From Dictyostelium discoideum (lineage: Eukaryota): DNA of 64,000 nucleotides. Below the pieces are notes generated by a model. It was not told the origin of the DNA, did not search any database, and was given only the letters and a program-made list of their open reading frames with translations. The translations under genes and the position numbers were made by a program. Positions 1,571 to 29,694 of this stretch are shown here, one piece after another; positions within the stretch are counted from its first letter, which is position 1; each line of letters opens with the position of its first letter. The stretch spans positions 2,144,001 to 2,208,000 of the forward strand of contig CM000151.3 in assembly GCA_000004695.1 (NCBI GenBank), in the 5' to 3' direction.

Positions 1571-1617
<47 letters not shown>

Positions 1618-1732
1618 GCCGTCTATTTTTCGTAGACTGTAATTATTTATTTTTTTTTTTTTTTATTATTATTATTAATATTATTAATATTATTATTTGG
1701 TTTTTATTTTTTATTTTTTATTTTAAAAATAA

Positions 1733-1764
<32 letters not shown>

Positions 1765-1767
<3 letters not shown>

Positions 1768-2141: not shown

Positions 2142-2180
<39 letters not shown>

Positions 2181-4199
2181 GTATTTTATAGTGGTGTTAG
2201 TATAAATGAATTAGGTAATTTTGATTCATGTATTAGTTATGCATCAAATGTTTCACAGTATTGTTTATTTAATACTCAAATTGAAGAGATATTACCAATT
2301 TATATTGGTGTATGTTATCCAAGTGCAATTTATTGTTCACCAGAAGATGTATTGGGTTTAATGACACAATATTCGATTTTAATGCTTTTACAAGCAAATA
2401 TGACATTCAATGCAACAGAGGATTTACATTGTTACAATAGTACCTATCAAACAGTAAACATAGAAGCAACAGCAGGTACATGGGCAATGACGGCAGTTTG
2501 TGCTTTCATCGCTTTGAATATCATAATTGGTACTGTCATTGAATATATATTTGTCATTCAATTATCAAACTATAGAAAGAGATATGGTAACTTAATGAAT
2601 CATCCATATTCATTATTAAATCCAAAGAGTTATTTCGAACCAAATTCAACCAATTTACAAGGTGATAATCAATATAGTTATATTACAAATCAAAATGAAA
2701 ATGAATCAAGTGGTGGTGGTGGTGGTGGTGGTGCTACTACTGCAAGTGGTGGTGGTGGTACAATTGAAAATCTTGGTAATAGTGGTATAAATAATGATTT
2801 TGAACCACAATTTTATGATGGATTTTTTGAAAGAATATCAAATGTTAATGTTGAATCCAATTTATTTATAAAGTATTTCACATGTTGGTCATTAATAAAG
2901 AATTTCAATTCATTAGCCTATGGAAAGAGTGAAAAACGTTATTTCAATTCATTGGATGGTATTAGAACTTTATCAACATGTTGGGTTATTTTAGGTCATT
3001 CATTACTATTTGGTGCATCAGGATATGGTTATGATAATTTAGCATACGTAGCAAGTGGAACTACATTACAAACCTTTGCAGCTCAAGCCATTTTCGGTGG
3101 TGAATTTGCTGTTGATACATTCTTTATGTTAAGTGGTTTCTTGGTTTCTTTCTCTGTATTGAATCAGTTAAGTAAACGTAATAGTATCTATGGGTCAATT
3201 AAATTTTGGGTTGCTTATGTAGTTCATAGATTCGTTAGATTAAGTCCGTTATATTACTTTATGATATTCTTTTCAATGTGGGTTGCACCAATGATTGGCA
3301 GTGGTCCAATTTTCTATCAATATAGTCAATTCACAAATTTGGGTTGTTCAAGTAGTTGGTGGACAAACTTTTTATACTTTAATAATCTTTACTCGACATT
3401 GGCCACCGAATGTTATGCTGTATCTTGGTATTTAGCAAATGATATGCAATTCTTTTTGTTGACACCTTTTATTTTGATACTATTCAGAAAATGGAAATTG
3501 GGTGGTTGGTTATTAACTTTATCACTTATTTTCGCTTCAGTCATTGGTACCACAATCGTCGCCTACAAATACCAATTGGAAACCTTCTTTGATATTTTCT
3601 CAGTAGCCGATGAAACCAATACCAATCCTTTCATAACAGATATCTATCAAAAACCATGGAATAGAATTGGTCCTTATTTAGTTGGTGTTTTGGTTTCTTT
3701 TATTTATACTGCACCAAGATTATCAAAAAGAGTTAGATTTATCTATTATCGTAGAATTACACGTTATATCTTATATTGTATCGCATTCTTTGTAACATTT
3801 TTCCTAGTTTATTGTCCATACACTTTTTATCAAAATGCTTGGAATTATTCTCAAAAGGCAGTGTTCTCTGGTTTCGGTCATACAAGTTTTGTTGTGGGTC
3901 TTGCTATCTTTATGATTGGTACTTTCTTTGGTTATGGTGGTATCGTTAAATGGTTCTTGGAATTGGGTATTTTCAAATTCTTTTCAAAGTTAACCTATTC
4001 AAGTTATCTTGTTCATCCATTGGTAATCATGTTTAGAATCTATTCAATGACAAATTTCTTACATTATTCTGTAACTGAATTCATTGTTTATTATGCTGGA
4101 AATATTGCAACCACTTTTGCTGCTGCTTTTGTAATTCATCTTTTAATTGAAAAGCCATTTGTCAATTTAGAAAGATTAATTTTCTCAAGTTCAAGTTAA
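1765..4199 (+). CDS. Acyltransferase-3 family membrane protein with N-terminal NRF (nose-resistant-to-fluoxetine) domain; exons 1765..2083 and 2182..4199
   Basis: Signal peptide MKINNIIILLIIVSIFLL. Donor gtaagt at 2084 and acceptor ...aatag at 2179-2181 join in frame with the 615-aa ORF. The Cys-rich N-terminal NRF-like segment (CSNAMSNL...CISYASN...CYPSAIYC) is followed by about 10 predicted TM helices typical of Acyl_transf_3. Confidence 0.75.
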
Positions 4200-4456
4200 A
4201 ATAAAAATAAAAATAAAATGAAAATGAATATATGAATTCATGGAAATAAAAAAAAAAAAAAAAAAAAAACAAAAATAAAAATAAAAATAAACTAATAAAA
4301 TATATTATTTTTTTTTATTTATCTTATAAAAAAAAAAAATTCAATTTAAAAAGTTTTTTTGATTATTTTTTTAAAAATACTAGTAAAATATCATATTATT
4401 TCTAAACTAAATTTTCCATTTTTTTTTTTTTTTTTTTTTTTTTTATTTTGCGAATT

Positions 4457-4494
<38 letters not shown>

Positions 4495-4503
4495 TATTAA
4501 CTA

Positions 4504-6108
4504 ATGAATTTTAAAAGGTTGATTACAACATCTTTTACAAATCAAATAAAAAATATGAAATTTAAAAAAACAATTAGTTTTAAACCATTTGATATTAATA
4601 ATCGAATTATTTATGATAAAGAACCTACAATAGTTTTTAAAGATCAAAAATCATGTTTGTTAAAAGATACAATTTCAACAACACTTGAAGATGGTAGTAA
4701 GGAATTAAAAATAAAAATTGGGAGATTTACACCAGGTTTAGATTCAAATAATAATTATATTTCATCAGATATCTTTGAAATTAATATTAACAATTATTCA
4801 AATAAAATTGATTTATGTTTGGTAAGTTTAAAATTTTATATATACATATATTTTATTTAAACAAATAAACAAACAATTTAGCAATACAATTATTGTTAAC
4901 AATCAAAACAATCAAAAAAAAATTACAATCAAATAATAAACAAAACATTAAAAAAACAATATATAACAAATCCATCCAAACAATCTATCAAGTAAATATT
5001 GTTTATTTTTTTTTTTTTTTTAGTTTACACTTTTGATTTGTTTTTTTTTGTTTGGTTGGTTATTCATCTTTTTTATTAAAGATTATTAATAAATTTTATA
5101 TTAGAATGGTAAAAATCCAACATTTTTAAGAAGAAAAGGAAAAATACCGACTAAAGTTAAAAATTGGGAACAATTATTAGGAGAACAATTGGAAATTAGA
5201 AAATCAGTCACTTTGGAAGATGGTGATATAATATCTTTTTTAGGTTTAAATGGTACAACTTCTTCAATACAATTTACAATTGAAGAAGATAATGAAAATG
5301 AAAAAGAAAAAGAAAAAGAAATGGAACTTGATAACGATAATACAAATACAGAATCAATTCCACCAATAACATCAAAATCAACATCAACATCAACATCACT
5401 TATAGATACAAATAAAATTCAATTGAAAAAACATTTTGAAGATCCAAATTCAAAGAATGTAGGTCTTTCAGCATTAGTTTATTTTTGTAATAAACCAGAA
5501 TCATTTCTAGATGTTGTTTTATATTATGATGATAAAACAGTTGCGGTACTTGATAAATATCCAAAAGCAAAACATCATTATTTAGTAATACCAAGAGTTG
5601 AAATCAATACATTGGATGAATTAACACCTTCTTTCATTCCAATGTTAGAACATATGTATAATGTTGCTGATGCAATTATAAATGAAATAATTTCAAAAGA
5701 TAATGATGACGATAATTTAAAAAAATCAGATTTCAAATTAGGTTTTCATGCAATACCATCAATGAAAAGACTTCATCTTCATATTATCTCAAATGACTAT
5801 AATACTAAATATTTAAAAAATAATAAACACTGGAATTCTTTTACTACTGAATTTTATATTCCTTTTGATAAAATCTTAAATGAATTAAAATCAAATGGTA
5901 AAGTTAAAGTAAGTATAAAAAAAAAAATAAAAAAAAATAAAAAAAAACTAATTCACTAAACAAATTATTATTTTAGATTGATCAAGTAAAATATAATTCA
6001 ATATTAAGTCAAATAAAAAAATGTCCAATTTGTAAAGAAGAAAATAAAAATTTAGAAAATTTAAAAGACCATTATAAAAAATGTTTAGAAAAATTTAAAT
6101 CTAAATAA
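4504..6108 (+). CDS. aptx: Aprataxin homolog (FHA domain - HIT domain - C2H2 zinc finger); exons 4504..4821, 5105..5908, 5977..6108
   Basis: The N-terminal FHA-like region continues across intron 1 (donor gtaagt at 4822, acceptor tattag at 5099-5104). The HIT core includes HHYLVIPRV and the histidine triad HLHIIS. Intron 2 runs from donor gtaagt at 5909 to acceptor ttttag at 5971-5976. The last exon encodes CPICKEE...HYKKC (zinc finger) and ends taa at 6106-6108. Confidence 0.75.
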
Positions 6109-6156
6109 ATAAATAAAAAATATAGATTTTATATACAAAAAAATTTAAATTTATTT

Positions 6157-7857
<1,701 letters not shown>

Positions 7858-8138
7858 TGTTGCTTTAAATTTGTGAAAAAATTAAAATATTAAAAATTTT
7901 TTTTTTATTATTGGCTGTTAATAAAAAAAAAAAGAAAAAAAAAAGAAAAAAATAAAAAAAATTAAAATAAAAAAAAAAAAATAAAATAAAAAAAAAAATA
8001 AAAAAAAAAATAAAAAGAAAAAAAAAAGAAAAAAATAAAAAAAATTAAAATAAAAAAAAAAATTAAAATAAATTCACAAATTTGGGTCGCCAAGTATAAA
8101 AAAAAAAATAAAAAAAAATAAATAAAAAATAAAAAAAA

Positions 8139-8262
8139 ACTAATTCACTAAACAAATTATTATTTTAGATTGATCAAGTAAAATATAATTCAATATTAAG
8201 TCAAATAAAAAAATGTCCAATTTGTAAAGAAGAAAATAAAAATTTAAATCCAAATAAATAAA
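8139..8262 (+). pseudogene. Relic copy of aprataxin intron-2 3' end plus exon 3 (zinc-finger exon), with an internal ~45-bp deletion
   Basis: This segment is near-identical to 5944..6010. It then reads ...KCPICKEENKNLNPNK* in place of ...ENKNLENLKDHYKKCLEKFKSK*. No upstream aprataxin exons accompany it. Confidence 0.55.
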
Positions 8263-8301
8263 AAATATGGATTTTATATACAAAAAAATTTAAATTTATT
8301 T

Positions 8302-9897
8302 TTATTTTTTATAATCCAATAAAATTACTGGATTGAAATTTTCAGTTTCATAATTGAAAACAAATTTAACTAATTTTAAACTATTTAGATGTTGCTTATT
8401 TTTATCGATTAATGATTGATACGGTTGAATCATATCGGGTCTACCATTAACTTCAACTATACTGACAGAAAAATCAGTGATAGTTTTATTTTGTTCTAAA
8501 ATTCTCTCTATTAATTGTGGACAGTTAATACCTGTACCAAATGATTCCATTGATGTGCTTGATGAAATTAGTGATGAAAATCTTTCAATAAATGTTTTTG
8601 ATGGTGATTGTTTACATAGTAGTATTTGAGATGCATAACATTCATGAAAGAATTCTAAACTTTTTAGGGTTTTATTATTTTTCAAGGCTTCTTTTAAGAG
8701 TCCAATTTTATTGAATTCCTCATTCACTTCCATTGAATTTGAAGGATTCTTATTTCACTTATCACAATTACATTTTTTAATTTTTGATTTCTTTCTTTCA
8801 GTTTTTGTCGATAAATAATATATTAAATTATTAAAACAAATACTAATTACAAGCTGACTTACTTTCTTTGAATAATTTAAAATTAATTCTAAATCTTTTA
8901 ATGAAACTTCCATTGAAAATATTTTTAAAAATTCTATATTTTCTAAATAATTAATTTTTTCATTATATTTCTTATTTTCTTCATTATTATTATTATTAAA
9001 AGGTATAATACCAGCTAATATTGGAAATAATTGCATTTTATCTTGTTGAGAAGTATATTTTATAATGAATAATTGAGCAATTGAATTTTTATATTGTTTA
9101 AATGATTCGATAATGAGTTCATTATCAAAACATGAATTAATTTTCAAAGTAAATACCTTTTTAACATGTTTTTTTATTTTATTTAAAGATTTAAATGTAA
9201 AAATTGGATTTAAATCTAATTCTAATAGATGAATATTACCATCAGTCGCTTCACATCGATAAAGTGATTGTAAAATATCAGTATCTTCAGTCTCGTTTGA
9301 TGATGATATATTTCTTAATATTAAGTTTTTAAATATAATTGTTTGTTGTTGTTGTTGTTGTTTTTGATTTTCTAATAATGATAAAGTTGATGGTATGGTT
9401 GTTTTTAATTTTGATAATTTTTCTAATTCTTTATTAACTATATCCAATTCTATTATTTTTTCATCAGATTTATCGTCATCAAAAATATCATTATCTTTTG
9501 GTGATTGTTTTTTATCTTTTTCATAAATACTAATATCTTTAATATAAAAGAATGAACCTTGATGATCGAAATGTAATTTCAATGTTTTTAAATTCTCTTT
9601 TTTAATTATTGAATATTTTAAATCAATGTCATTTTTATTATTATTATTATTATTATTATTTTTATTATGATTTAAATTTGTATAATTAAAATCAACTGAT
9701 ACAGTTAAATTATTTGATAAAGTTTTAAACCAATCTTGAGATACTAATGCCAATGTTAACATTAATCTTTTAATTTGACTTTCATTCCCTCTATAGTCAC
9801 CACCAACATAATCAATTGATTTATTATTTTTATCTATATATCTACATAAAATTTTAATTATATATTTTTGAATATATAATGGTAATAACACAACCAT
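8302..9897 (-). pseudogene. Decayed tandem paralog of the F-box-like gene (split into ORFs 8755..9897 and 8302..8733 by indels; poly-N tracts short)
   Basis: The protein is about 90% identical to the 6157..7857 product. The reading frame breaks near 8740-8760, where ...KKCNCDK* replaces the copy-A sequence ...KKCNCDSLIRNPSNSMEVNEEF. Further indels turn KNWDSLKEAL into KIGLLKEAL and LRLSGQCQASQILCEQ into LEFFHECYASQILLCKQ. Poly-N runs are 8 and 5 residues here, versus 36 and 31 in copy A. Confidence 0.55.
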
Positions 9898-10359
9898 TGT
9901 TGCTTTAAATTTGTAAAAAAATTAAAATATTAAAATTTTTTTTTTTATTATTGGCTGTTAATAAAAAAAAAAAAGAAAAAAAAAAAGAAAAAAATAAAAC
10001 AAATTAAAATAAAATGAAAAATAAAAAAAAAAAAAAAAAAAAATTAAATAAAAAAAAAAAAAAAAAAAATAAATTGTTATGTTTTTCTTAAAATTTTAAA
10101 TATCATGGGGTTTGAAAATAGATTTTTTAAAATTCCAGATTTAAAAAAACTTAATTTGAAATAGAAAAAATAAGGTGGATGGATGTAAAAAGTTCAGAAT
10201 TAAAGTGGAAAAGTAAGTTCTAAACGTTTTTATTTACTGGTCGCAGCCCCCCTTTATAAAAAAAAAAAAAATACAAACATGTACAATTTTTTTTTTTTTT
10301 TTTTTTTTAATAAACTAAAAAAAATGAAAAAAATAATTATTTTATGTTTATTATATTTT

Positions 10360-13300
10360 TTAATTTGAAGGAATATTAAAAGTTATAGTATTTGTATCAT
10401 CTTTAGTTAAAACCAATGAATTTTGATTTGACCAAAATAATTTAATATTTTCAATTTTTGGTATTGTTGGTTGAGAATTATTAATTATAGATTGTTGTTG
10501 TTTTAAGTTATTATTATTATTTTGATTTTGATTTAAAGGTTGAGTTGGTGGTGAATTAAAACCAAGAGAAGTTTGTTTTTCAGAAGCGGTTGAAACTGTA
10601 CGAACACAAGTGAATTGACTTGAATTAATTAAACCAAAAAATGTTGAACTTGCTTGCCAAATTTTAATTTCATTTGAGAGTGAACAATAGCAAGCCAACA
10701 TCTTACCACTTTCATTAAAGGTGACAGCAGAGACAAATGAATTTTTAAATGATTCGAAACGATGCCATCTAGTAGCAGTTTTCAAATCATAGATTACGAC
10801 TAAACCATCCAAAGTACCTAATACCAAACGTTGAGTATCATGATGAAAACTAACCATTGGATATTTATTGACCATTAAATGTAAGACAGCAGTGGTTTGA
10901 CGTATACAAGCCTCACGTAAAACTGGTGTATGAGGATCTAAGCTTTTGATGATTGAATCGATAACACGTGGTAGGAAAGGTAAAACTGAATCGGGATCTT
11001 TCTTTATCAAAGACCCAATGAGTACAATACCATGAACTCTACAAGTGGTACTAGTATTTTCACTTGATATTTCATCGCCAATTACTTGAATAAAAGTTTT
11101 AGGATCTACGGAACCAATTAAAAGCAATGAAGTTTTTGAGGTTGTAGCCAATGGATCCGATTGCATTGTAAGTGTGAATAAACATTTCAATAGACCTGGT
11201 AAATCTTTAATTGAGTCTTTCCAAATGGAGAATCCTTTACCAATCAATTCCACCGCTATAATCGTTAAATTACCTGTACCTTTATAGATCATCTTTTGAA
11301 GTTCAATACCAACACGTGAAGAGAAGGCATTGTTAAAATCTGAATTTGGTCTATTGGATGCAATGATTGCCAAAACAATGATTGAACGTGCTCTTTCAAA
11401 TGGACCCAAACAATCGGCATTCAATACACTACAGAATGAATTTACCAACTGTTTGAATGCAGTATTTGGCATACGTTCAATTGAAATCTTAAATATTGAA
11501 CGAGCACTAATCATAACATCTTCATTACCATCTTGACAATAAGTTGCTAAATAAGAGAAATCTGGATAAACATACCCTTGTAGGGTCTCTGGTAATGTTG
11601 TACAATAGTATGTCGTTAACTGGCTGACGGTATTCTCCATACCACCAATTCTAAGTATAGTTCTACCCAATGCTACCGCTGATAAAGTTGTTTGAGCTGT
11701 TAAAGTTTCTGAACATTGTAATTTACCTGTTGAAAATGATACACTTGGTGTAAGGAAACTCATATTACCACCATGACCTAATAAACCAAATGAAAAATCT
11801 GGTTGTGGTGGTCTTAATTGAAAATCTTTCATATATAATATATCTAATGCTTTATCCATACCCCATGGTATTAAATATGAAAATATTGATACTAATTGAT
11901 TTAAATCTTTTTGAATTATTGATGATCCAATATTTTGTTGTTGTTGTTGTTGTACTTGTTGTTGTTGTTGTTGTTGTGATTGTGATTGTGGTTGTTGTTG
12001 TTGTTGTTGTTGTGATTGTTGTTGTTGTTGTTGTTGTTTTTGTTGAGTTATTAATAAAATATCTTCAGAAATTGATTTTATATTTAAAAATAAAGTTTGA
12101 ATTGGTGGATCATTTTTATGAGTATAAACTAAAGATTTAGTTGGAAAATGTTGACCTGAATGAATTTTACTTTCTTGTTGTTTCCAATTATTCGAGAGTA
12201 ATTCTGAATTATCCAAGATATCCTTAGCGATTTGACCATATACTACACCTTCAAGTTCTCCACTTCCCATCTCCCAAATTGAAACTGAACCATCGATAGT
12301 TTCAACCATTAGATAACCTTGTTCATTCTTCCAATGTACCTTGGATATTGATGAAGAGTGAACACCAAACATGTGTTTACATGATAGATCCTCCATAGAG
12401 TACATACCGATTGTTTTATCTTCAGAGATGGATATGAAGGTATTTCTTCTTGACGATTGTGGTAACGAGAATATTGAATACACGGGACCTGTATGATGAG
12501 AGAAAGTGTGTAACAATTTGAATGTACTTAAATCCCAAACTTTAATTGTGCAATCATTGGATGCAGAGAATAACAATCGTCTTAGACCAGTGCCAGGTGG
12601 TGAACTCATCAAATAGTTTACCCTACTATTATGAGAGTTGTTATAAAATTTCGTAAATAAATCGGTGGGTAATTTACTGGTACTAATACTGCCATCCTCG
12701 TAACCACGTATCAACATCATCGTATCATCCAATAAAAGTGAGGCTGTAACACGTTGTTGTCTTGCTTTGCCACCTTTACCACTCTGTTCAACACTCTTCC
12801 AACCATCAGATATTGATCCTTGTAAATTTGGTTCTCTTAATATTCTCTTACCACTAGTTGTTGCTGTCTGATTAGTTGGATTTAACAATTGTTCACTATT
12901 AACTGGTATTACCCAAATTCTAATATGACCATAAACATCACCAATCATAAATATATTACCAAAACACATTGCTGCTCCAATTTTTAATAATGGTGTTTGT
13001 TGACTATTATTATTATCATTTGAAGTAAAAGTTATTAACAATTGTGGTGGTGGTATACCTGATTGATAAGTGAAATTAATTATTGAATAATCTGGTTGAC
13101 CAATTTTACCATTACTATTATTATTATTATTATTGCTATTGCTATTATTAATATTAAAAGAACTATTATTTAAATTTGAAGAGGAGGATAGAGATGAACC
13201 ATATGATCTTGATAATAATGGTGAGGTACCTTCAATTGGTACAGGGTCACCTAAAGGGAAAGATTTTAAATCGGTTTGATCGATACGATAAAGGAAACCT

Positions 13301-14488
13301 CTGCCTTCTTTATTCCAAATTAAAACCATACTATTATCAATGAACGAACCACCAAACCAACCACCACTAGTTGGCAAACCTGCTTGTTTCTCTTGAATGG
13401 TTGTACAAGGACAACGAATTGAATAGAGTAATCTTGAATTTTGGGTGGTGAAAATGGACCAATTGTTCTTTGTCACAACCAATAACGATTTACCATTGGG
13501 TGAGAATTTAATTGAGATGGGTGCGTCATCCAATGTGTAACTACCATCGACACCACTACCTCCACCATTAACATTTCTAGAATCTATAACTTGCAATGCC
13601 ATATCTTGATCACCGGGTTTGAGTAACCAAAATCTAATAATACCATCCAACCCACCCGATAATAGCATCGAGGTCGAATCTTGCATCGTACAAGAGAATA
13701 AACTTGTCACCCAATCCATGTGATCATTGATCGTACTTACGATTCGCAATGAATGAATATCGACAATATATATATAGTTTGAACCTTTACCACATACAGC
13801 TACCTGTTTCCTATTGGGTAATGATACCATCTGTGTTGGTGAACATGATAGAAAATGTGATACTGTCGACAATAAACATAATCCATCCATTATACTCCAC
13901 ACTGACATACTACCATCTGATGCTGCACTAATAACAACTTCCTTTCTTTCAAATTCTCCTAATGCTAAACATGTAATTGGATTCTCATGTCCAATACCTA
14001 AAATTTTCGGTGTAAATTGATTTTCTTTTCCCTTTATATATATATACATATAAAAATAAATAAAAAATATTAATATTATTTATTTTATAAAATATATAAA
14101 TATTTTTTTTTTTTTTTTTTTTTTTACTTACTTGATCTAATGAAATTGAAGTTATTGCAATGTGACCAGATTGTGAACCTGATATGATTGTTTTTTTATC
14201 TGGAGTAATGATGATTGATGTTATCCAATGTGATGGTGAACCACACCAAAGAACAACTGGTACCAGTATTTCTGTACCTTTATTTAATATATAATTACTA
14301 CTATTATTACCATTAACTGATTGTAAACTATTGGATAGTAATGCATTGCTACCATTCATTCCACTACTACTACTACCACCACTCACTGATAATGGTGATG
14401 GTCCATTTGAATATGTTCCATTACTATTATTATATACTCCACTACCATTTAATACTGACCCACTACTTGAGTTTAAATTAAAACTCAT
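10360..14488 (-). CDS. WD40-repeat protein, WDR7/rabconnectin-3beta-like (~1343 aa); exons 14132..14488 and 10360..14031
   Basis: Exon 1 ends ...SISLDQ with donor gtaagt (plus 14126-14131). The acceptor aaag (plus 14032-14033) joins in frame to the 1229-aa ORF. The N-terminus ILVPVVLWCGSPSHWITSIIITPDKKTIISGSQSGHIAI resembles the WDR7 N-terminal beta-propeller start. Multiple WD-like blades are present. An internal poly-Q is encoded by (CAA)n, seen as ttg repeats on the plus strand at ~11935-12050. Confidence 0.65.
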
Positions 14489-14653
14489 CCTTTATAAATA
14501 AATATATAATCTTTAACTTTTTGAAAGTGAATATTTATTTTTCACCTTTTTTTTTTTTTTTTATTAAAAAAAAAAAAATAAATAAATAAAAAAAAAAAAA
14601 CCAAAAAAAAAAAAAAATAAAAATCTTTACACTGGTCACAAATTAAAATTAAA

Positions 14654-14686
<33 letters not shown>

Positions 14687-14817
14687 AAAATTTTAAAAAA
14701 TAAAAAAACAATAAAAAAAAAAATTTTCGTTATCTTAAAATAGGAGTGTTTTCCTAAAATTAAAATCATTTCTTTAAATTAAAATCAATTTCTAAAATAG
14801 ATTAATAATATTATTGA

Positions 14818-14912
14818 CCCCAAATTTCTACCACAAAAACCATTAAACCTATCAAAACCATTCCAATCACCCAATTTCCACACCACCAAAACATACAACT
14901 AGTTGTATGTAT
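14818..14912. promoter_or_regulatory. C/A-rich element block plus a perfect 20-bp palindrome in the divergent intergenic region between the WDR7-like gene (-) and the secreted-protein gene (+)
   Basis: The stretch ccacaaaaaccattaaacctatcaaaaccattccaatcacccaatttccacaccaccaaaac (14826-14890) is unusually C-rich for this genome. It is followed directly by acatacaactagttgtatgt (14891-14910), a perfect palindrome. Confidence 0.3.
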
Positions 14913-15392
14913 TATTATTAATTTAAAACAACACCAAAGTTCAACTTTTTTTTATTTTTTTATTTTTTTTTATTTTTTTTTATTTTTTATATCGAAATAT
15001 ATATAATTATTTAAATTTAATATCAATTTTTTAAATGATTCCAAACCATAAAAAATATTTAGCAAACAAAGAATGTTTATTTGAAAAAAAAATTTTTTGG
15101 AATATCATATTTTTGAAGAGAATAAAAAAAACCTTCTGTGTCGATTAAAAAAAAAAAAAAAAAAATTGAAAACCTTCCATGTCATAACCTTGGGTTGGAA
15201 AAAAAAAAATCTTTTTTTTTTTTTTTTGATGATGTGGAAGGTTTTTTTAAAAAATCTTTTTTTTTTTTTTTTTAAAAATAGAATTGGTTTTTGTTTTTGT
15301 TTTTTTTTTTTTTATTAATAGAATTTATTTTGTTTTTTATTTTTTATTTTTTATTTTTTTTTTTTTTTGATAACATTAATAATAAATAAACA

Positions 15393-16010
15393 ATGAAATT
15401 ATTATTTTCAATTATTTTATTAATTTTTTCAATAAATTCGGTATTTTCATCAAGAAATGAAACAATTATTTTAACTCCATACAAAGATTCAGATTGCACA
15501 GAATTTGGTGGTGGTGTTGGTTATGGGTATATGCCTAATGTACCAAATTCGAATATAATTAGAGTTTTTGGTAATATTTATGATACTTTTGAATTCAAAG
15601 AATCATCAAATGGTGAAATACTTTTAATGAATATTTTAGGATCAAATGGAAAAATTATCAAAACAGAGAGTTTTAATATAAAGAAATGTCAATACTCACA
15701 ATTTTTAAAAACCTATTACTTGTTTGATACAGAAATTAATATCCCAACACCATCAATACAATTTAATCAATGGGCCACTGGTTCAAATAGTGATAGTTTT
15801 AATGGAGAATGTATGGTTGATGTCTATGAAACTTTTAATTTCATAGCAAATGATACAATAATTAATTTACCATATATTCAATCAACCCAACAATTTTATT
15901 GCATAAACGATAGTCCATACTTAAAATCTTGTCAAGAAAATTCAGGTTGCTACACAAATCAATTAACCTCATGTTTTGATGGTGAATACAAAGCAACTTG
16001 TATTAATTAA
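15393..16010 (+). CDS. Small secreted cysteine-rich protein of unknown function (205 aa, single exon)
   Basis: It has a signal peptide (MKLLFSIILLIFSINSVFSS) and 10+ Cys residues, with no homopolymer tract. It starts with ATG and ends taa at 16008-16010. Its amino-acid composition resembles that of confirmed neighbouring genes. Confidence 0.5.
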   Translation: MKLLFSIILLIFSINSVFSSRNETIILTPYKDSDCTEFGGGVGYGYMPNVPNSNIIRVFGNIYDTFEFKESSNGEILLMNILGSNGKIIKTESFNIKKCQYSQFLKTYYLFDTEINIPTPSIQFNQWATGSNSDSFNGECMVDVYETFNFIANDTIINLPYIQSTQQFYCINDSPYLKSCQENSGCYTNQLTSCFDGEYKATCIN

Positions 16011-16249
16011 AAAATAATAAATAAATGAAATAAATAAATAAATTAAATAAATAAATAAATAAATAAAAATGATTAAACTTTTTTTTTTTTTTTCACTTTT
16101 TTTTATTTTTTTTTTTTGTAGGTGCGTGGATTTTTTTTTTTTTTTTGTATACACATGAAAACTTTTTTTTTAATTTTAGAATAGCAAACTAATACATTCT
16201 AAAAAAAAAAAAAACATCATTATTTATTATTTTTATTTATATGTTTCTT

Positions 16250-18043
<1,794 letters not shown>

Positions 18044-18745
18044 TATCTAAACTATATGTAAATATTTAATATTATGTTTATTTTATTTTATTTTATTCTA
18101 AATTTTTTATTTTTATTTTTTTTATTTTCTTTTTTTTTTTTAAGGATTTATTTGATAAATAATTTATTATTATTAATAATCAATCGCACCACTTTTTTTT
18201 GATTAAAAAAAAAAAACACAAATACACATCACAATTGTTTTATTATTATTATTAATTGTTATGTGAGTGTAGATATATGTATTTATTAATATTTAAATTT
18301 ATATATGTATATTATATGTTTAGGTATGTATGTGTGCTTGTTAGAGAATTGGAAAATAAAAATAATAAAAAAAAAAAAAAAAATTTCATAAAAAAATAAA
18401 AATAATAAAAAAAAATAAAAAATAAAAAAAAATAAAAATAATAAAAAAAAAAAATTCGAAAAAAAACAATTTTTCTATTAATAAAAACATTTAAATATTT
18501 CCATTTTATTTTATTTTATTTTTTTTTAAACAATGATTTAATTTTATTTATTTTTAATATGAATTTAGTATAGATAAATAAAACCCTCGAACAAAAAAAA
18601 GAATAATATTTCTGTTTTTTGAATTTTTTGAATTTTTTTTTTTTATTTTTTTTTTTTTTTTCAAAATAAGATTATTAAATTTTTTATTTTAATTTTCTAA
18701 AATAAGATTATTAAATTTTTAGAAAAAAAAAAAGATTAAGTTTTT

Positions 18746-20524
18746 TTATTTTGGTTTTGATTTTGAAGATAATTTAGATTTACTATGAATTTCTCTAAGG
18801 ATTGATTTTGCCTCTTCTTTTTCAGGACCAGCATAATCCAAGAGACGTAAACAATATTGTTCAGATTGAGTTTGATTTTGATTTTTATAAAAATTTGCAA
18901 GGAATAAGAGAGCATCAATGATTTCTTGACCATCGATTTTCTCTTGATCGCAATAGTATAGATTCTTTTTATAATAGAAGGCTGCTTTTTCATTGTTTTG
19001 AATCTCTTGATAAAGTTTTGCCAATTTATTGATTGCAACACGTTCTCTATCGTAGTTTTCTTCGGCACGTTCGTAGCATTTAATTGCTTCGGGTATTCTT
19101 TCGATGAATTCATAGCAACCACCGGCAGCACACCACATTCTAGGATCATAGGGTCTGAGGGTGGTGGCTTTTTTGAAGTAGTACAAAGAATATAAAGGTA
19201 GCTTGAGTAGTTGATAAGTTTGACCCAACCCATACCAAGCTCTGTAGTCTCTTGGATTGATATCGACCGCTTTTCTATACGCGTTGATTGCAGCGGATAC
19301 ATTCTTAATTTCTAAAAATTCGTGGCCAATCAATGTCCAAGCTGAAAGGTAACGATCATTCAATTTCAAAGCTCTTTGAAAGTAAAGTATTGCCTTGTCA
19401 TGCTCCAATTTCAAACTGTAGTAATTACCAATGATGCAGCATGTCTCTGGACAGTATTTCTCGATCTTCATCGCCTTATGAGCCAGCATACTCAAGGATG
19501 CCTTCTTGTCCCTTACGTAGAGTATGTTGCTGTAGATATCGATATTCTCCAATCTGTTTGGCTCCAACTCTATCAATCTTTCAAATAACTCTTCACCAAT
19601 ATCGTATGCACGTAAATTGTAATTACCAATTGCGGTTTGCGCTAGAATATAAGTGGATTGGGTGAATAGTGTCCTTGAGAGTTGTTGATAGATCACCAAG
19701 GATTCATTGTTTTGTTGAAGTTCCAATTTAAAATGAGCCAAAAAGAAATCTTTCATAAAATGATCAGGTAATGACAATTGCATAATAATATCGGCACTAT
19801 CTGAACACAACGAAGATAGGTCACTCCATGCTGACCAATTACATGGATATTTATGTACAGATTCAATTAATACCTTTCTTGCCATTGTGAAATCTCTTTG
19901 CTTCTTTAATAACATACTATAGAAATATAATAAAAATCCATCCATATCTTTCTTATTTTCAATATATAACTTTTTATAAAATTGAAATAGTTGTTTAAAT
20001 TCTTGACATTGTTCAATCTTTTGTTGTTGTTGCTGCTGTTGTTGCTGATCTGTTTTATTATTATTATTAGTGTCATTATTTTTATCATTTTGTTGTGACT
20101 CTTGTTGTGCTTGTTGAGCTTGTTGTTGTGCTTGTTGCTGTTGCTGTTGTTGTTGAGCTTGTTGTTCAATTATATCTTCTTCTCTTCTTTTTTCAATTGC
20201 TAAATAGGTTGCATAGGAACGTAGGAATATTGGTAATTGATATTTATTACAATCAATTAAAACATCTGAACATCTTCTATACTCTTTTAAATCGAAATAA
20301 TTCTTTGCTAATATATATTTATAATATTCATTACTTCCAATTGGTGGTGATGATATTGATGGTTGTGATATAATTGATAATTGTTCCTCATTGGTTAATG
20401 GTGTAGCCAATATAGTTGGTGATAATCCATTCAATTGTTCTGATGACCATTTTGAACTTAATAATAATCCTCTTGAATTTAAATCATTAATTGATTTAAT
20501 TAATTCAATTTTTATTTGTGACAT
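18746..20524 (-). CDS. anapc8: Anaphase-promoting complex subunit 8 (Cdc23), TPR repeats, 592 aa
   Basis: The ANAPC8-type N-terminus (SRGLLLSSKWSSEQL) is followed by TPR repeats. The C-terminal TPR block RALKLNDRYLSAWTLIGHEFLEIKNVSAAINAYRKAVDINPRDYRAWYGLGQTYQ is highly Cdc23-like. An internal poly-Q insert is present. Confidence 0.85.
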   Translation of the reverse strand: MSQIKIELIKSINDLNSRGLLLSSKWSSEQLNGLSPTILATPLTNEEQLSIISQPSISSPPIGSNEYYKYILAKNYFDLKEYRRCSDVLIDCNKYQLPIFLRSYATYLAIEKRREEDIIEQQAQQQQQQQQAQQQAQQAQQESQQNDKNNDTNNNNKTDQQQQQQQQQKIEQCQEFKQLFQFYKKLYIENKKDMDGFLLYFYSMLLKKQRDFTMARKVLIESVHKYPCNWSAWSDLSSLCSDSADIIMQLSLPDHFMKDFFLAHFKLELQQNNESLVIYQQLSRTLFTQSTYILAQTAIGNYNLRAYDIGEELFERLIELEPNRLENIDIYSNILYVRDKKASLSMLAHKAMKIEKYCPETCCIIGNYYSLKLEHDKAILYFQRALKLNDRYLSAWTLIGHEFLEIKNVSAAINAYRKAVDINPRDYRAWYGLGQTYQLLKLPLYSLYYFKKATTLRPYDPRMWCAAGGCYEFIERIPEAIKCYERAEENYDRERVAINKLAKLYQEIQNNEKAAFYYKKNLYYCDQEKIDGQEIIDALLFLANFYKNQNQTQSEQYCLRLLDYAGPEKEEAKSILREIHSKSKLSSKSKPK

Positions 20525-20738: not shown

Positions 20739-21144
20739 ATGACAGTAAAACCCGAATTTATATTCAATGAAAATGTTCAATATAATCAAATAAAGTGTAA
20801 TACTAAAACTATTGAATCTTTGAAACTATCATCATATCAATATATTAAATTGTTTATTTCAGATAAACATTGTTTAATAGTTGAAGTTATACCAGATGTA
20901 ACCATTGAAGACAACACCATATTATTATCAAATCAAATAATTAATAAAATTGGTAATAAAAATCAAATAAATAGATATAGTTTTAATTTTGAACCAATAG
21001 AAATTATATCAAATAATAATAATAATAAAAATAAAAATAATGTCACAATTACAATAAAAAATATTAATAGCCCATATAATGGAAAGATTTTAAATAATTC
21101 AATAAAAAGATTCTTTTCATATAAGCCAGTAAGTTTTTATATAC

Positions 21145-21175
<31 letters not shown>

Positions 21176-23055
21176 TATAATTTTAACATTTTCATTAACA
21201 ATAATAATAATAAAATTAAAAATTATAGATTATTAAAGATTGTGAATATTTATGTCCTATGGTCGGTAATATGTGCATATTTAGGGTTGTAGATATTAAA
21301 AGAAATAATAATAATAGTAATAATAATAATAATAATTATGGTGATAATGATAGTTCCTTTGAACATATTCAAGAATTTTTAGAAAATAATAATAATATTA
21401 ATGAAATTATTATAATGGATGATAATACCCCAGAAAATAAAGAGTTGAATATAGAGTTAATCGATATAAAAGAACAAGTTGAACAATTATCAGAATTTTT
21501 AAAATTAAAATTTAATACCTCATTTAGTAACAACAACAACAAATATAGCAATCAATTGAATTTCTTAAAATCAAAAGGTATTTTAATTGATGGACCAGAA
21601 GGCACAAGCAAATTACAATTAATAGAATATATAGCTCAACAATATAACTACAAATATTTAAATTTAAATGAATTAGTTAATGGTGGTAGTGGTGGTGGTG
21701 GTGGTGAACAGTTAAACTCAAAAGAACCAATGATTTACATATTAAATAATTTAGATTCAATTGTTGGTAAAATCAGTGATAATGAGAATAGTTACCAAAA
21801 GAAAGTTATTCAAAGATTAACAAATTTCATTGATCATATAAAGTCTAATGAAATTATTTTATCAACATGTACATCAGTTGAAAATATTGACCAATCAATA
21901 ACACGTGCTGGTAGAATTGATAAATTTATACATTTAACAATTCCAACACAATCTAAAAGAATGTTAATCCTTTCAAACCTTTTAAAGAATACACCATTAC
22001 AATATGACACCAATAATAATAATGATGATATTGATCAGTGTAAAATAAAAGATAAAGAACAATTTATAGTTGAATTAAGTAAAATTACACCAGGTTTCCT
22101 TTTTAAAGATTTAACAAAATTATGTAGAACTGTATCATTATTAACAGTTTCAAGTTTTGAAGAAGAAGAAGAAGAAGAAAATGAAAATGAAAAAGAAATT
22201 AAAATTTCATTTAAAATATTTAAAGAGGCATTAAAATTTATTAAACCATCAACGTTAATAAATTTTGATGTTACAGTTCAAAATGTTAAATGGGATAGAA
22301 TTGGAGGTTATAAACAAGTTAAAGAAAGATTTAGACAATTAATTGAATGGCCATTAAAATATCAAGATACATTCAAGAGATTATCATTGAATAATTCATC
22401 AGGATTATTATTACATGGTCCATCTGGTTGTGGTAAAAGTTTAATGGTTAAAGCAATTGCAACAGAGATGAGTATAAATTTCATATCGATTAAGGGTTCA
22501 GATATCTATTCTAAATGGTTAGGTGAAAGTGAAAGAATCATAAGAGATTTATTCAAGTCTGCTAGATTATCGTCACCGTGTATCATGTTTTTCGATGAAA
22601 TCGATTCATTGACACTCTCAAGAGGCAGTGGTGACGATAATGAGGATGGCGGTACATCCAAACGTATCCTTAGTCAATTGTTGAATGAAATGGATGGTAT
22701 CCAAGTAAAGAGTCAAATATTCTTAATTGGTTGTACAAATTCAATTCAGTCAATCGATAGTGCTCTATTGAGACCTGGTAGATTCGAATCATTAATTCAT
22801 ATAGATTTACCAAGTCTTGATGATCGTTTAGATATTTTAAATGTACTATCAACAAATTCTTTAAATTTCAATAAAGATGAAATCACCCAACAAGTATGGT
22901 TAGATATCGCTACTCAAACCAGTGGTTTCACAGGTTCACAATTATATGATCTTTGTAATCAAGCTGGTATCATTCAATTAGAAACTGACATCGTCAACTC
23001 TCAATCAATTTCAAAACAATCCTTATATGAAAGTTTAAATAAACTTAAAAATTAA
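20739..23055 (+). CDS. Two-domain AAA+ ATPase (degenerate D1, canonical D2), SPATA5L1/PEX6-like; exons 20739..21128 and 21229..23055
   Basis: Donor gtaagt at 21129 and acceptor tatag at 21224-21228 keep the frame (..FSYKP|IIKDCEY..). D2 has Walker A GPSGCGKS, Walker B IMFFDEID, SQLLNEMDG and ALLRPGRFE. D1 has a deviant GPEGTSK P-loop. Confidence 0.75.
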
Positions 23056-23087
23056 ATAAAAATTAAATATTTATAAAAAAATTATAA

Positions 23088-25650
23088 AACTATGTTTTTA
23101 TTTCTTTGTTTTTTCTTTTTAATAAATTGAATTAAAGAATTGATAGTATTACTTTGAATTTGTAGAATGGTTACTAAATTTATACCAATTTCTTTATCTA
23201 TCCAATTCTTTAATTGAGCAATAAATAAAGAGTCTGCACCATAATCCACAAGACCAATATCTAAATTTAGTTTAATTTCTTCAATTGATAATAACTCTGA
23301 TATCTTGGAAATAATTAACCACCACTCATATTAGATTGCTTTGAAAATTCTGTTGCTGATTCTTCAATAAGATTTTCAAATTTAATTGAGATTGAATGTT
23401 GTGGATTATTTTTAAATATATTAAAATTAAATTGGTTGAAAGTCTTGATTTTGAATTTGTAAATCTAATGAACCTACTTTATTCATTGTGACAATATTGT
23501 AACCTTGAGCCTCTAATGTAACTGCAATCGATGCATTTCTTAAAACTAAACCAGATTTAATTGAACAAATTGATGGTAATTTAAATCTGATACGATTTCA
23601 TTTAATTTTTGTTCATTACCTGCAATGACAATTGATGTCGGTGAATTGTAACATGAAATTTCAATATCTGAATATTTTTAAGAATAATTTGATTTAAATT
23701 TAGATTCATCAATGTTTATTGATAACATTCTACCATTAGCATGGGTTTTATTTTGTGCAATTGATCTATGATAAATTAAATAACATAAAGTATCCAATGC
23801 AATCATACCTGAACAATAGGCTGCTGAAATTTCACATAAACTATGGCCAACTATAAATAATGCTTCAATTCCCCAATGAGTATATAATTTAAATAATGAA
23901 ATTGTTAACATGCAAACTGATGGTTGTGCAATTGTTGGTTCATGAATTGATTGAGTATCAGTTGTTCTTAATTTCTCAAAAACAGAATAACCATAATACT
24001 TTGACAATGCTTCATTTAATTGATAAATTGATTGTTTGAAAATTGGTTCGTTATTATATAATTCAATTGCCATTGTATTATATTGTGAACCTTGACCTGC
24101 GAATACAAATATGGTAATTGGTTTCTTTCTTTTAATTGATATATTTGCTGATTTTGAATTTGATGTTTTAAAATATCCTAATGATGGTGTTTTAAATTGA
24201 TCCCAATTTGATGCAATTATTACAGATCTTTGAAATAATGATCTTGATTTCTTTAAAATTTGATTTTGAACAAATATTGAAAATTCAACAAAATCAATAT
24301 CTTTTGAAATTAATTGTTGTTGATAATCTTCCAATGATTTTGTTGAGTTTGCTGAAAATGGTACTAAATATTCTTTATTTTTATTTTTTATGGTGTTAAT
24401 AGACTTTTCAGGAATTGTTTCTTTAAATTCGGATAAAACTAAACAACAATTTGAGCCAGTAAAACCAAAATTATAAATTACAATTGAAAAAGGTTTATTA
24501 TTATTATTAAACTTTGAAAATGGTTCTGTAATAACTTTTAAATTCCATTCATCAAATTTAATCATTGGATTTGGAATTGAATAATTTATATTTGGAACCA
24601 AGCTTTTATTAAAAAGTATTAAACAACACTTGATTAATGATACTACACCAGATGCAGCTTCAGTAAGACCAATCGAACATTTAATTGAACCAATTAATAA
24701 TGGATTTTCTTTTGAACGAGTGCCATCATTATTAAAAACCATTGATATACTTTTAGTTTCTAATATTTGTAGCTTGGGATAATGGTGCATAAAAATTTGA
24801 TTTATCCTCAAGACCGAAACCATCGACATTTGAATTTGCACCTTTTAAAATACAATAAATTTTATCACCATCTTTAATTGCTTTTGTTAATTTCTTTAAA
24901 AGTACAATACCAGTACCCTCTGCACGAACAAGGCCATTGGCATCTTTATCGAATGGTCTACAAACCCCAGTTTTACTTAACATATTAAGGTATGAAAATG
25001 CTTTAATATTTGTTGTATCCAGAATTAAATTTACACCACCAACAATTGATAAATCTGATTTACCTGTTAAAATTGATTGACGACCTAATGTAACTGCAAC
25101 ACCTGATGATGAACATGCAGTATCAACAGCCATTGACTCACCACGTAAATCAAAACAATAGGAGATACGATTAGCTGTTCCATGTGCATATGTACCAAAA
25201 ATATTTAAATATTGTTTATTTTGATTTACATTGGATTCTCTATATTCTGATGTTGAACAACCAACAATTACCGATGTGTTTGATGCTCTTAATTTCATTG
25301 GATCAATTCCTGCATCTTCAAATGCTTCCCATGTACATTTTAATAGTAATCTTTGTTGTGGATCAATAGTTGATGCTTCTGATGGACTAATACCAAAAAA
25401 TAATGGATCAAATGACTTTAGTTCGTCAAATGGTAATAAACCTGCATATCCATTACTTATTTCTCCCAATCTACTGAAATTATCACTCCATCTCTCTGTT
25501 GTTTTTACAACACCATTAAATCCATTCATTAAATTACTCCATAACTTAATTGGTGAGTCATTGTTTGCTTTTTCTTCGCCACTTGGTATTCTAAATCCAA
25601 GCCCAATAATTGCTATATCTTCATTATCATTATTTATAGTAAACTTCTTT
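23088..25650 (-). pseudogene. Truncated, frameshifted type-I polyketide synthase remnant (KS - AT - ACP only)
   Basis: The minus-strand translation gives [16 protein letters not shown] (the typical Dictyostelium PKS N-terminus, with no in-frame ATG nearby). The KS domain carries active-site DTACSSS (ORF 24753..25529). The AT domain carries FVFAGQGSQY and GHSLCE (ORF 23678..24841, overlapping the KS ORF out of frame). The AT C-terminus is broken (23340-23680). An ACP follows with [23 protein letters not shown] (23088-23300). DH, ER and KR domains are absent. Confidence 0.65.
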
Positions 25651-26267
25651 TTTTTTTTTTTTTTGATTTATTTACTTTTTCTTTTTTTTTTTTTTTTTTT
25701 TTTTTTTGGTTTAATATCTTCTAAAATAATAAATAACAATAAATGTTTTTAAAGGAAAAAAAAGCTAATAATTTAATGATTATACAAATCAAAAGAATAA
25801 AAAAAAAAACCAAATGTATTTCCTTACATTATGTGATACCAATTTGATAACTTTTTTTTTTAATCAAATGGGAAATAAATAAATTATAAATTAATATTAA
25901 TTTTTTTAAATAATATTTTCAAATGAAATATAAGGTTCATACAATGCCCAATTTTTTACTACCCTCCCTTTTTTTTTTTTTATTTAATTATTATTTTGGG
26001 GGTTGGGTGTTTGTTTATTAATAAAAATGATTTTTTGTACAAATTGTCATTATTTTTACTTTTAATTTATTTAAAAAAAATAAATTTATCCTTGTGGTAA
26101 GATATAATTTCAAATAATGAGTCGTTAAAAAAAAAGTTGCTTTTTGAAATTTTTAATCTTATTTTATCTATTATTTTTTTTATTTTATTTTATTTTATTT
26201 TTTTGTTTTATTTTACTATTTTTATTACGTGAATATTAGTATTTTAATTTATTTGTTATCATCATTT

Positions 26268-26334
<67 letters not shown>

Positions 26335-26340
26335 CCTTAC

Positions 26341-27350
26341 CTATTTTTTAAAAAAGAAATCGTTTAAAATGGCCAAAGTATTAGCTGGTGATTTTACAGT
26401 AAAAGATTGTGTAATTCTTGGGTGATTAGCAATTTCATAATCATTACCACCCAAAAAAGTTTTATCACCAAAAAAGTAGAGTGTTTTAAATTCATCCTCT
26501 GGTAAATGACGTAAACAATAAGTTTTATCCCAACCAATTGGAAAAACATCAAAACTTATTTGACCACCAATTGAATATTGTAAACCAAAAGATTTAAATT
26601 CCTCTTTTAATATTGATACCATTGTTGATCTAATTTTGTGTTCCTGAAAAAAAAAAAAAATTATTATTAAATTTAATATATATATATTTAATCATATTTA
26701 AAAGTACAATAAACCTACCAAATCATACTTTTCAAATTCTTCACGTTCTTGTTGGGAACAATTTCTACCAATTGGCGAGATATTAAGCATACCATTTCTA
26801 AATTCAACAAAGGTACCTCTTTTTATTGGAATATCAAGATCAGCTACATAATGTAACACAAAATTAATAAATTTTTTGATATTTTCTTCACCTAAATACT
26901 TTTTAATATCCTAAAATAATATTTAATTATTATGATGCTATATATTTTATTTATGATTACTACTATTAATATAATAAAAAATTTTAATAATTACTTGAAT
27001 TTCTAATAATGAACCATCTTTATATGCTATTAAACCATTTTCTGCAAATACATAATCAAAATCATTAATAAAATTTTCACCTAATTGCTCTTTAATTTTA
27101 TTAAAATTAGAGCCACCAACAACACCTATCTTTATTTTTGTTCTTAAAGATGCCAATAATTCTTTCATTTCATTGGTGATTGCCTATTTATTTTTTAAAG
27201 CATTTTTATTATTTTATTTTATAAAAATGTTAACCAATCATTTTATTAATTTATTTTATAAAAATATAAAATACGGATACTTGCATTTCTCGGTTTAGTT
27301 AAAGTATCATCCACATCAAACAAACATATAGTGTTTTTATTTTGTGACAT
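26341..27350 (-). CDS. pmmA: Phosphomannomutase (PMM, HAD superfamily), ~249 aa; exons 27285..27350, 26995..27183, 26719..26910, 26341..26643
   Basis: The joined protein [22 protein letters not shown]|[10 protein letters not shown]...[20 protein letters not shown]...[15 protein letters not shown]...[34 protein letters not shown]...[25 protein letters not shown]...[16 protein letters not shown] aligns colinearly with human PMM2. Introns 2 and 3 have gtaatt and gtaggt donors. Intron 1 fits only as GC-AG (donor gcaagt). Confidence 0.85.
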
Positions 27351-27797
27351 TTCAAAGGAATTTTTGTTAATAAATCTCACAAATCAGATTAATCAAAACA
27401 AATGAAAAAAAAAAAAAAATGAAAAAATAAGAAAATAAAAAAAAAATTTATAACATAAAAAAAAGGAAAAAGGAAAAATTGAAAAAAAATCAACATAAAA
27501 AAAAAAAAAAAGGAAAAATTAAAAAAAATTATTGCGTTGTTGCCAATGGGAGCATGGAAAAAAAGGTAAAATAAAAAAAGAGGTGACTAACCGAGCAGCG
27601 CCACATAGAAATAAATAATAAATAATTAATTATTTTTATATCCAGCCAATCTTAGTTGTTTATTTTAAAGAAAAAGATTTTTTTTTTTTAAAGATTTTTT
27701 TTTTTCCCAACACCCAATATATTTATAGTTTTTGAAATTTTTATTTTTTTTTTTTTTTTTTTTTTTATTTTTCATTTTTTATTTTTTTTTATTTTTA

Positions 27798-27829
<32 letters not shown>

Positions 27830-28066
27830 GAACTATGGAATATTATTAGAGAACCAAATGGAAATGGAATGAAAAAGCTATAATGATTAGGTTTATAGTT
27901 TTTTAAAAAATAAAAAATTAAAATTAAAAATAATTAAATATAATTAAAAATAATTAAAAATAATTAAAAATAAAAATAATTTTTGGTAAAAAAGATTATT
28001 TAAAAAAAAAAAAAAGAAAAAAAAAAAAAAACCTAAATACTATTTTTAAAAAAAAAAAAAAAAAAA

Positions 28067-29694
28067 ATGGGTGGTGCGGTGCTTATTAATAGTGGTAACA
28101 GTAGTAATACTCCTATTAATGAAGAAGAGCCGTCTGGATTGGAAACTAATTTTGGTACCACTACTCCAAATTTAAAAAAAAAGTACTTAATTCAGTATAT
28201 AATATTATATGCATATTTAGCGTGTATTTTTATATCAACATTTTTATATGATATTTTCATTCCAACTTTATTATTTCATTATGTTGAACATAAATTTCCA
28301 GATTTAACACCTCAAGAAAAAAGTTCGAAATCATCATATTATAAATCTTATTCTGATGGTTTTCCATTTTTAGTTATGTTTTTATTTGTAAGTTTTTAAA
28401 TAATAATTTTTAATATTTTATAACAATAGAATAATTGTTAATAATTATTAATTGTTTTTTTTTTTTTTTTTTTTTTAATAAAAATAAGGGACCACTTGTG
28501 GGATATATTTCAGATAGATATGGAAGAAAATCCAATTTTTATTTATCAGTTTTAACAGTTATGTTTGTTATTATGTCATGTTTTGTATCAATGGAAACAA
28601 ATAACATTTATTGTTTTTATGTTTTCCATACCATTGGTGGTTTATATAATGTTTCAAACTCTGTAGTTTTTTCATTCATTTATGATATTTCCGATGAAAA
28701 AGATATTCCAGTTTTGTTTACATTATGTGGACTTTCAATGGGCCTTGGTACAACGATTGGATCTTTAATTTATGCATTTGTACCAACTGATAAGGTTCCA
28801 TATATGATGTTATACATTTCTAGTGGGTTCGCTTTAGTATCTCTTATACTTGTTCCATTTTTAATTGAAACCATTCACATCTCTCGAGAAAATAATAAAA
28901 ATAAAACTTTTGTAAAAAAAAGTTTTGAAAATCCAAATCCATTCTCAACTATTAAAAGTTTATTCACAAATAATGGTTTTATTTCTTGGACAATTTTATT
29001 ATTTTTTTCAATTCAATATACTGGTCAAGATATCTGGTCAACCTTTTACTATTACTCATATCTAATGTATAACTGGAATCAAAAAACAATTGGTCTTTTT
29101 ACTCTTGGTGTTGGTGGTGCAACAATTTTATATAGTGTTTTAATTGTTCCATTATTTTTAAAAGTTTTATGTATGTTGTAAATTTATAAATTATTTTTTA
29201 TTATTGTTGAACAAATTTAATTAAATATTAACTTTTTTTTTTTTATTTCTTTCTTTTTTTTTTTTTTTTTTTTTTTTTTAGCTGAAAAAAAAGTAATTAC
29301 AATTGGATTCTTTATTACATTCTGTGCACATGTAATGCTATCAAGTTCAAAGTTTTCACAATATCTTTTTATTTTTGGTGCAATAGTTAGTAGTATTGTT
29401 CCATGTGTTTCGAATTTATTATGCTCTGTAATATCTAAATCTACACCTCAAGAAGTTCAAGGATCAGTATTAACAGGTCTTCAATCTGTAAAAGCACTTG
29501 GTAGCTTTGCTGGTGCCATGGTAGCTAATAATTTACTAAGTCATTTCTCAAGTGATGAATCATCGATTTACTTTCCTCAAGCTATCTATTTTTTAAATGG
29601 TGTTGTATTATTTATAATAATGATCATTTCTATTTTAGTTTGGAGATTTTATAAAAACAAAATCAAAAATAATGTAAACAATAATAACAATTAA
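28067..29694 (+). CDS. Major-facilitator-superfamily transporter (HIAT1/MFSD14-like), about 12 TM; exons 28067..28387, 28489..29170, 29282..29694
   Basis: Intron 1 runs from donor gtaagt at 28388 to acceptor aataag at 28483-28488 and restores the MFS loop-2/3 signature GPLVGYISDRYGRK. Intron 2 runs from donor gtatgt at 29171 to acceptor tttag at 29277-29281, in phase 1. Both sides of it are hydrophobic helical segments. Confidence 0.65.

Follow-up and report, generated by a model that had tools for sequence, protein, structure and literature searches.

Forty putative polyketide synthase (pks) genes, as worded including five pseudogenes, have been described in Dictyostelium discoideum, the pseudogenes having an open reading frame (ORF) interrupted by stop codons (PMC9618038), and the polyketide synthase (PKS) family is in lineage-specific expansion (PMC3188802). 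The locus analysed here lies in a 64-kb stretch of D. discoideum DNA (GCA_000004695.1, CM000151.3, positions 2,144,001 to 2,208,000), hereafter called the window, to whose first base the coordinates below refer unless a chromosome or another locus is named. On the minus strand, 23082..25643 was found to be the relic of a type I PKS gene of approximately 2.56 kb, in which the KS, half of the AT and the ACP are left; it is bounded by the stop codon at 23082 and by 25643. The relic shares with the reported pks pseudogenes the genome, the gene family and an interrupted reading frame, and, unlike a simple stop-codon pseudogene, it has lost approximately 60% of its length. Very probably the locus is one of the five pseudogenes already counted (PMC9618038). 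In our analysis, the relic is almost certainly a non-functional unprocessed (unitary) pseudogene of a type I iterative highly-reducing-type PKS that decayed in place. The numbers pks4, pks11, pks12, pks20, and pks43 are unused, and we take them to be those of the D. discoideum pks pseudogenes; in dictyBase, the relic would presumably have the identifier DDB_G0272779, which falls between DDB_G0272777 and DDB_G0272781. A literature match to "pks12" was rejected as a name for the relic (it is a mycobacterial enzyme).

The plus-strand neighbour (20739..23055) was 100% identical to DDB_G0272777 of D. discoideum AX4, which codes for a VCP-like AAA ATPase. According to the supplementary synteny table of PMC3188802, DDB_G0272777 lies at chromosome 2, 2151170-2153486, and the length of the gene is 2317 nt both there and in the window. 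With the gene coordinates of PMC3188802, the position of the relic was derived as approximately chr2:2,153,513-2,156,074, between DDB_G0272777 and pmmB (DDB_G0272781). The pmmB gene (26341..27380, minus strand) is intact, contains an intron, and is located on the same strand approximately 700 nt upstream of the relic; it has a stop codon of its own, after which comes an AT-rich spacer that contains long poly(A) tracts. Two such tracts, of 26 and 17 bases, were found at 25650..25720 (minus strand), directly upstream of the start of the relic KS, and their lengths vary between the two D. discoideum assemblies compared below. The window is strongly AT-rich overall, and the GC content was 0.23-0.32 across 23000-25700 vs 0.10-0.19 in the spacers. 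Both D. discoideum (approximately 28022-29645, plus strand) and D. firmibasis have a gene for an MFS transporter next to the PKS position, with 78% nucleotide identity between the two; this gene may once have belonged to a cluster with the synthase and have outlived it in D. discoideum.

The content of the relic was assigned with Pfam and tblastn. The N-terminal part of the KS (24760..25643, minus strand; aa 4-293 of the orthologue, see below) was recognised by both, and in the frame-0 stretch 25643..24756 PF00109 (KS N-terminal) was complete (profile positions 2-252 of 252, E = 1e-69); it holds the conserved N-terminal motif DIAIIGLGF at 25619..25593 and, at 25124..25104, the KS active-site Cys motif DTACSSS. 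The C-terminal half of the KS, the KS-AT linker, and the first ~60% of the AT (23579..24759, minus strand; orthologue aa 322-719) were likewise recognised by Pfam and tblastn. In the frame-1 stretch 24841..23579, PF02801 (KS C-terminal) was represented by its last half only (profile positions 61-118 of 119), followed by the KS-AT linker PF16197 and by PF00698 (AT), of which only the first 179 of 319 profile positions were matched (E = 2e-31). The segment 23319..23578 (minus strand; orthologue aa 2124-2226) corresponds to the very end of the KR and to the KR-ACP linker, and it was detected by sensitive tblastn; Pfam gave no match for the two short pieces between the AT and the ACP, which were recognised as the KR end and the linker solely through comparison with paralogues and orthologues. 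The C-terminal ACP (23082..23318, minus strand) ends in a TAA (23084..23082), is 81% identical to the D. firmibasis ACP, and gave PF23297 (E = 4e-28) and PF00550 (E = 4.5e-8) in the stretch 23318..23085; the motif of the phosphopantetheine site, GADSL, is at 23240..23226, and the serine of DSL is present. No in-frame ATG was found between the upstream stop codon and DIAIIGLGF, and the first in-frame ATG is at 25529; a change of ATG to ATA was considered for the lost start, around which the 5' ends of the three species compared below align poorly. A reading of this DNA made beforehand from its letters (the sequence-only reading) had described an internally deleted PKS pseudogene of approximately 2.5 kb with an intact DTACSSS motif, a recognisable ACP with GADSL, and no in-frame start codon, and on all of these points it agrees with the assignment; the interval given there, 23088-25650, falls slightly short of the terminal stop codon at 23082.

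Orthologues of the gene were located by anchoring on the neighbouring ATPase gene. In D. firmibasis (GCA_036169595.1, CM069770.1), the next gene after the ATPase orthologue was, on the opposite strand, an uninterrupted PKS ORF of 2299 aa (L012 12361-19260), and in D. dimigraforme (GCA_054859025.1) it was one of 2132 aa (L011 12347-18745). These genes, 6.4-6.9 kb in length, have the same position and orientation beside the DDB_G0272777 orthologue as the relic, and, unlike the relic, they are single ORFs with a complete Cys-His-His KS, a full AT, DH, KR, and ACP. The domains of the D. firmibasis PKS according to Pfam were KS (4-381), AT (542-833), DH (931-1209), KR (1957-2128), and ACP (2218-2299), and no ER-type family was reported by Pfam; the D. 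dimigraforme PKS gave KS, AT, DH, KR, and ACP with a zinc-ADH-type ER-like match in addition. No methyltransferase was detectable by Pfam in the orthologues, and the parent gene of 8-9 kb with a methyltransferase, assumed in the sequence-only reading, has to be replaced by this shorter one. In the ancestor that D. discoideum shares with D. firmibasis and D. dimigraforme, this site held an intact PKS gene of approximately 6.4-6.9 kb with KS, AT, DH, ER-like, KR, and ACP regions.

Several features of these loci were observed in addition. In D. dimigraforme, a second large gene (L011 19207-22306), which runs off the locus, adjoins the syntenic PKS, to residues 1254-2123 of which its product shows 88.7% identity; this indicates a lineage-specific tandem duplication. 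The syntenic D. dimigraforme PKS is also without approximately 175-190 aa in frame (residues 1238-1427 of D. firmibasis, a region with no Pfam match) and is still one ORF, so that internal deletions would seem to occur also in apparently live members of the lineage. At the place equivalent to that of pmmB, D. firmibasis has three short PMM-like fragments (55-62% identity; L012 approximately 19929-20220, minus strand), and no PMM-like sequence was found in the D. dimigraforme flank. Decay is thus reciprocal in two of the species: in D. discoideum the PKS is dead and pmmB is intact, and in D. firmibasis the PKS is intact and pmmB is in fragments. In D. purpureum, the ATPase gene is directly followed by a saposin/GDSL-lipase gene, and no PKS, pmmB, or MFS gene is present between them. 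For the orthologous locus of D. citrinum, no further members were found via cluster membership.

With the full-length D. firmibasis PKS as the reference for tblastn, a search that had been proposed for mapping the retained segments, three blocks were obtained on the minus strand: aa 4-293 at 25622..24759 (91.7% protein identity), aa 322-719 at 24763..23579 (76%), and aa 2124-2298 at 23579..23103 (56%, split over three frames). The relic is therefore colinear with the D. firmibasis PKS, and the two sides of the large gap meet at base 23579. Protein identity to D. dimigraforme was 81% in the N-terminal part of the KS and 79% in the C-terminal part of the KS and the AT; for the ACP, it was approximately 80% to both orthologues.

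The first disruption is located inside the KS. Nucleotide alignment with both orthologues placed a deletion junction at 24760|24759, where 89 nt corresponding to nt 879-967 of the D. firmibasis CDS are missing; the deletion is flanked by a 4-nt direct repeat (ATTG), shifts the frame, and takes out the catalytic-His motif CHGTGT. Alignments with paralogous proteins gave a gap of approximately 26-31 aa within the relic KS. The frameshift had been noticed beforehand from the overlapping minus-strand ORFs (24753..25529 and 23678..24841), which are indeed present; it had been placed at the KS/AT junction, and its real site is this deletion within the KS. The second KS His is replaced by Leu, SNIGH having become CSIGL (CSIGLTE at 24679..24659 vs SIGHTE/NIGHSE in the orthologues), and the AT nucleophile elbow reads GHSLCE (23848..23831) in place of GHSLGE. 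An in-frame TAA at 23680..23678 is the sole stop codon in the retained half of the AT. The largest lesion is a single deletion at 23579|23578, which was supported both by the two tblastn alignments ending at 23579 and by the alignment of the junction; it spans 4213 nt when D. firmibasis is taken as the reference and 3688 nt when D. dimigraforme is, has only 2 nt of microhomology (AT), and takes away everything between aa 720 in the AT and aa 2123 in the KR, including the DH, the central region, and the ER-like part. Downstream of it, the KR-ACP linker (23578..23319) has suffered a 12-nt deletion and frameshifting deletions of 17 nt and 16 nt. This stretch has several stop codons in every frame, and its tblastn alignment to the orthologues is split over three frames; it is the segment that had been taken for a stop-riddled C-terminus of the AT, which is instead deleted. 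Both deletions may have been produced by replication slippage or by microhomology-mediated end joining.

At least seven disabling lesions are thus present in a sequence approximately 60% shorter than the intact gene. Together, the two losses (89 and 4213 nt) amount to 4302 nt, which is divisible by three, and as a result the frame past the large junction is that of the KS; we regard this match as a coincidence. No part of the deleted orthologue sequence was matched elsewhere in the 64-kb window (E <= 1), and tblastn with paralogues and orthologues gave no further PKS-like sequence there, so that neither an additional PKS exon nor further domains are found nearby. Among the features of a functional PKS, the carrier domain with its DSL serine is retained, and a continuous ORF with a start codon, the Cys-His-His triad, and a complete AT are not. 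A working synthase cannot be encoded by the locus: the KS is without both catalytic histidines, the AT is without its C-terminal half, and no domain for the processing of the beta-carbon is left.

The same structure was found in a second D. discoideum assembly (GCA_054883475.1), which is 99.6% identical over 21.8 kb and 99.8% identical over the relic. All lesions of the relic are present in it, and the differences are limited to one base at approximately 25639 and to the lengths of homopolymers; since an independent assembly has the same structure, it is unlikely that the AX4 form is an assembly error. In the automatic annotation of GCA_054883475.1, pmmB and the KS-AT part of the relic are joined in an 848-aa model (L001 3286-6849, equal to L010 12940-16503; approximately 23678-27241 of the window), which stops at the TAA inside the AT, and the ACP has a separate 160-aa model (L001 6873-7445, equal to L010 12344-12916; approximately 23082-23654 of the window). 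Both models end exactly at lesions, and they are probably artefacts of gene prediction over a pseudogene.

The substitution pattern was compared among the three species. At the nucleotide level, the relic had an identity of 0.81-0.88 to either orthologue, in the same range as that between the two intact orthologues (0.81-0.84). Substitutions unique to one branch were distributed over codon positions 1/2/3 as 44/33/71 in the relic, 39/25/118 in D. firmibasis, and 51/31/112 in D. dimigraforme; the ratio of positions 1+2 to position 3 was 77:71 in the relic and 146:230 on the two intact branches (chi-square test, p = 0.008). The shift off third positions was strong in the C-terminal segment (p = 0.001), and no relaxation on the D. 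discoideum branch was detectable in the N-terminal segment of the KS (10:23 vs 55:92; Fisher's test, p = 0.55). The GC-to-AT excess was modest (39:52 in the relic vs 31:77 and 38:75 on the intact branches), and the GC content was nearly unchanged. On the basis of the GC content and of the third-position bias of the KS, which is still coding-like, purifying selection would have acted on the gene along most of the D. discoideum branch, and its death would be recent compared with the split of the three species. The unshifted pattern in the N-terminal segment of the KS fits such a recent death, and it would equally fit lingering selection there.

The latter point bears on the possibility that the dead synthase was co-opted, as a 3' extension of pmmB or a chimera with it, through a truncated KS-like polypeptide that starts at the ATG at 25529, or in the form of a regulatory RNA. 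The relic lies shortly downstream of pmmB on the same strand, the automatic annotation joins the PMM to the KS-AT in one model, and the substitution pattern of the N-terminal KS segment on the D. discoideum branch is coding-like, all of which could be expected from co-option. However, the fusion model requires invented introns over the frameshift and ends within the AT, pmmB is closed by a stop codon of its own and is separated from the relic by the AT-rich spacer with its poly(A) tracts, and a coding-like pattern is expected after recent inactivation. We therefore consider co-option very unlikely. Transcription of the relic as such, for instance through read-through from pmmB, may occur. It is very improbable that the N-terminal part of the KS is expressed, from the ATG at 25529 or through read-through from pmmB or a chimera with it, and is kept for a non-catalytic or regulatory role. 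If co-option were true, the reciprocal pattern of PKS and pmmB would represent a lineage-specific functional trade-off and not chance.

Paralogues were also compared with the relic. The protein search with the relic gave matches only among entries of up to approximately 1200 aa, shorter than full-length PKSs; within this sample, the best matches were P0001 of D. purpureum (54% identity) and P0002 of D. dimigraforme (52%), and the best D. discoideum proteins were 47-49% identical. P0001 and P0002 were rejected as orthologues, both being non-syntenic paralogues. The PKS genes of the D. discoideum locus L008 (GCA_054859385.1) were 41-55% identical to the relic. Paralogues of D. discoideum and D. 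purpureum (P0001, P0003, and L008) share with the relic the KS-AT-...-ACP architecture and the family-specific motifs; unlike the syntenic orthologues, they have 49-59% protein identity to the relic and are non-syntenic. The first map against paralogues was colinear from the KS to the middle of the AT and then jumped to the KR end and the ACP. In L008, two PKS genes are arranged in tandem (840-9249 and 10001-18087), each broken into several ORFs, which may reflect either true pseudogenes or homopolymer errors of long reads, and the second is annotated as models of 1197, 1118, and 134 aa; for tblastn, the L008 genes were used as stop-to-stop pieces.

With this comparison, we also weighed whether the relic arose as a dead-on-arrival partial copy of a paralogue by segmental duplication and was never a full gene at this site. 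In favour of such a copy, the absence of PKS, pmmB, and MFS genes between the flanking orthologues of D. purpureum makes the block lineage-specific, and PKS genes in these amoebae duplicate often, as in the tandem copy of D. dimigraforme. Against it, a full-length intact gene is present at the same position and in the same orientation in two sister species, with the same ATPase neighbour in both and the same MFS gene in D. firmibasis; the protein identity of the relic is 76-92% to the syntenic genes vs approximately 50% to the sampled D. discoideum paralogues; and both true ends of the gene are kept. Such an origin is extremely unlikely. A functional minimal KS-AT-ACP gene with its frame restored by introns, to which the deletions summing to a multiple of three with the KS frame regained, the intact Cys and ACP serine motifs, and the spliced automatic models across the relic might point, is virtually impossible, since the coding sequence of CHGTGT and of the C-terminal half of the AT is physically missing from the locus and from the whole window and cannot be restored by splicing, Leu has replaced the second KS His and Cys the Gly of the AT elbow, a start codon is lacking, a TAA interrupts the AT, the 17-nt and 16-nt deletions shift the frame ahead of the ACP, and the frame switch at 24760 lies inside a 17-nt overlap with no space for an intron.

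For a unitary pseudogene that decayed in place, the comparison with sister species adds the exact breakpoints and the loss in situ; the kind of feature is unchanged, that is, an ordinary pseudogene, and its significance beyond bookkeeping is small. Two gene models of a recent automatic annotation can be flagged as probable artefacts. For the family, the locus offers a clean, datable example of how a member is lost from the PKS repertoire of social amoebae, which turns over fast: the PKS genes at a single syntenic site range from none in D. purpureum through one in D. firmibasis to a tandem pair in D. dimigraforme, and in D. discoideum the site is occupied by the relic with its two microhomology-flanked deletions. 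D. discoideum is thus left without a polyketide pathway that its closest sequenced relatives may retain.
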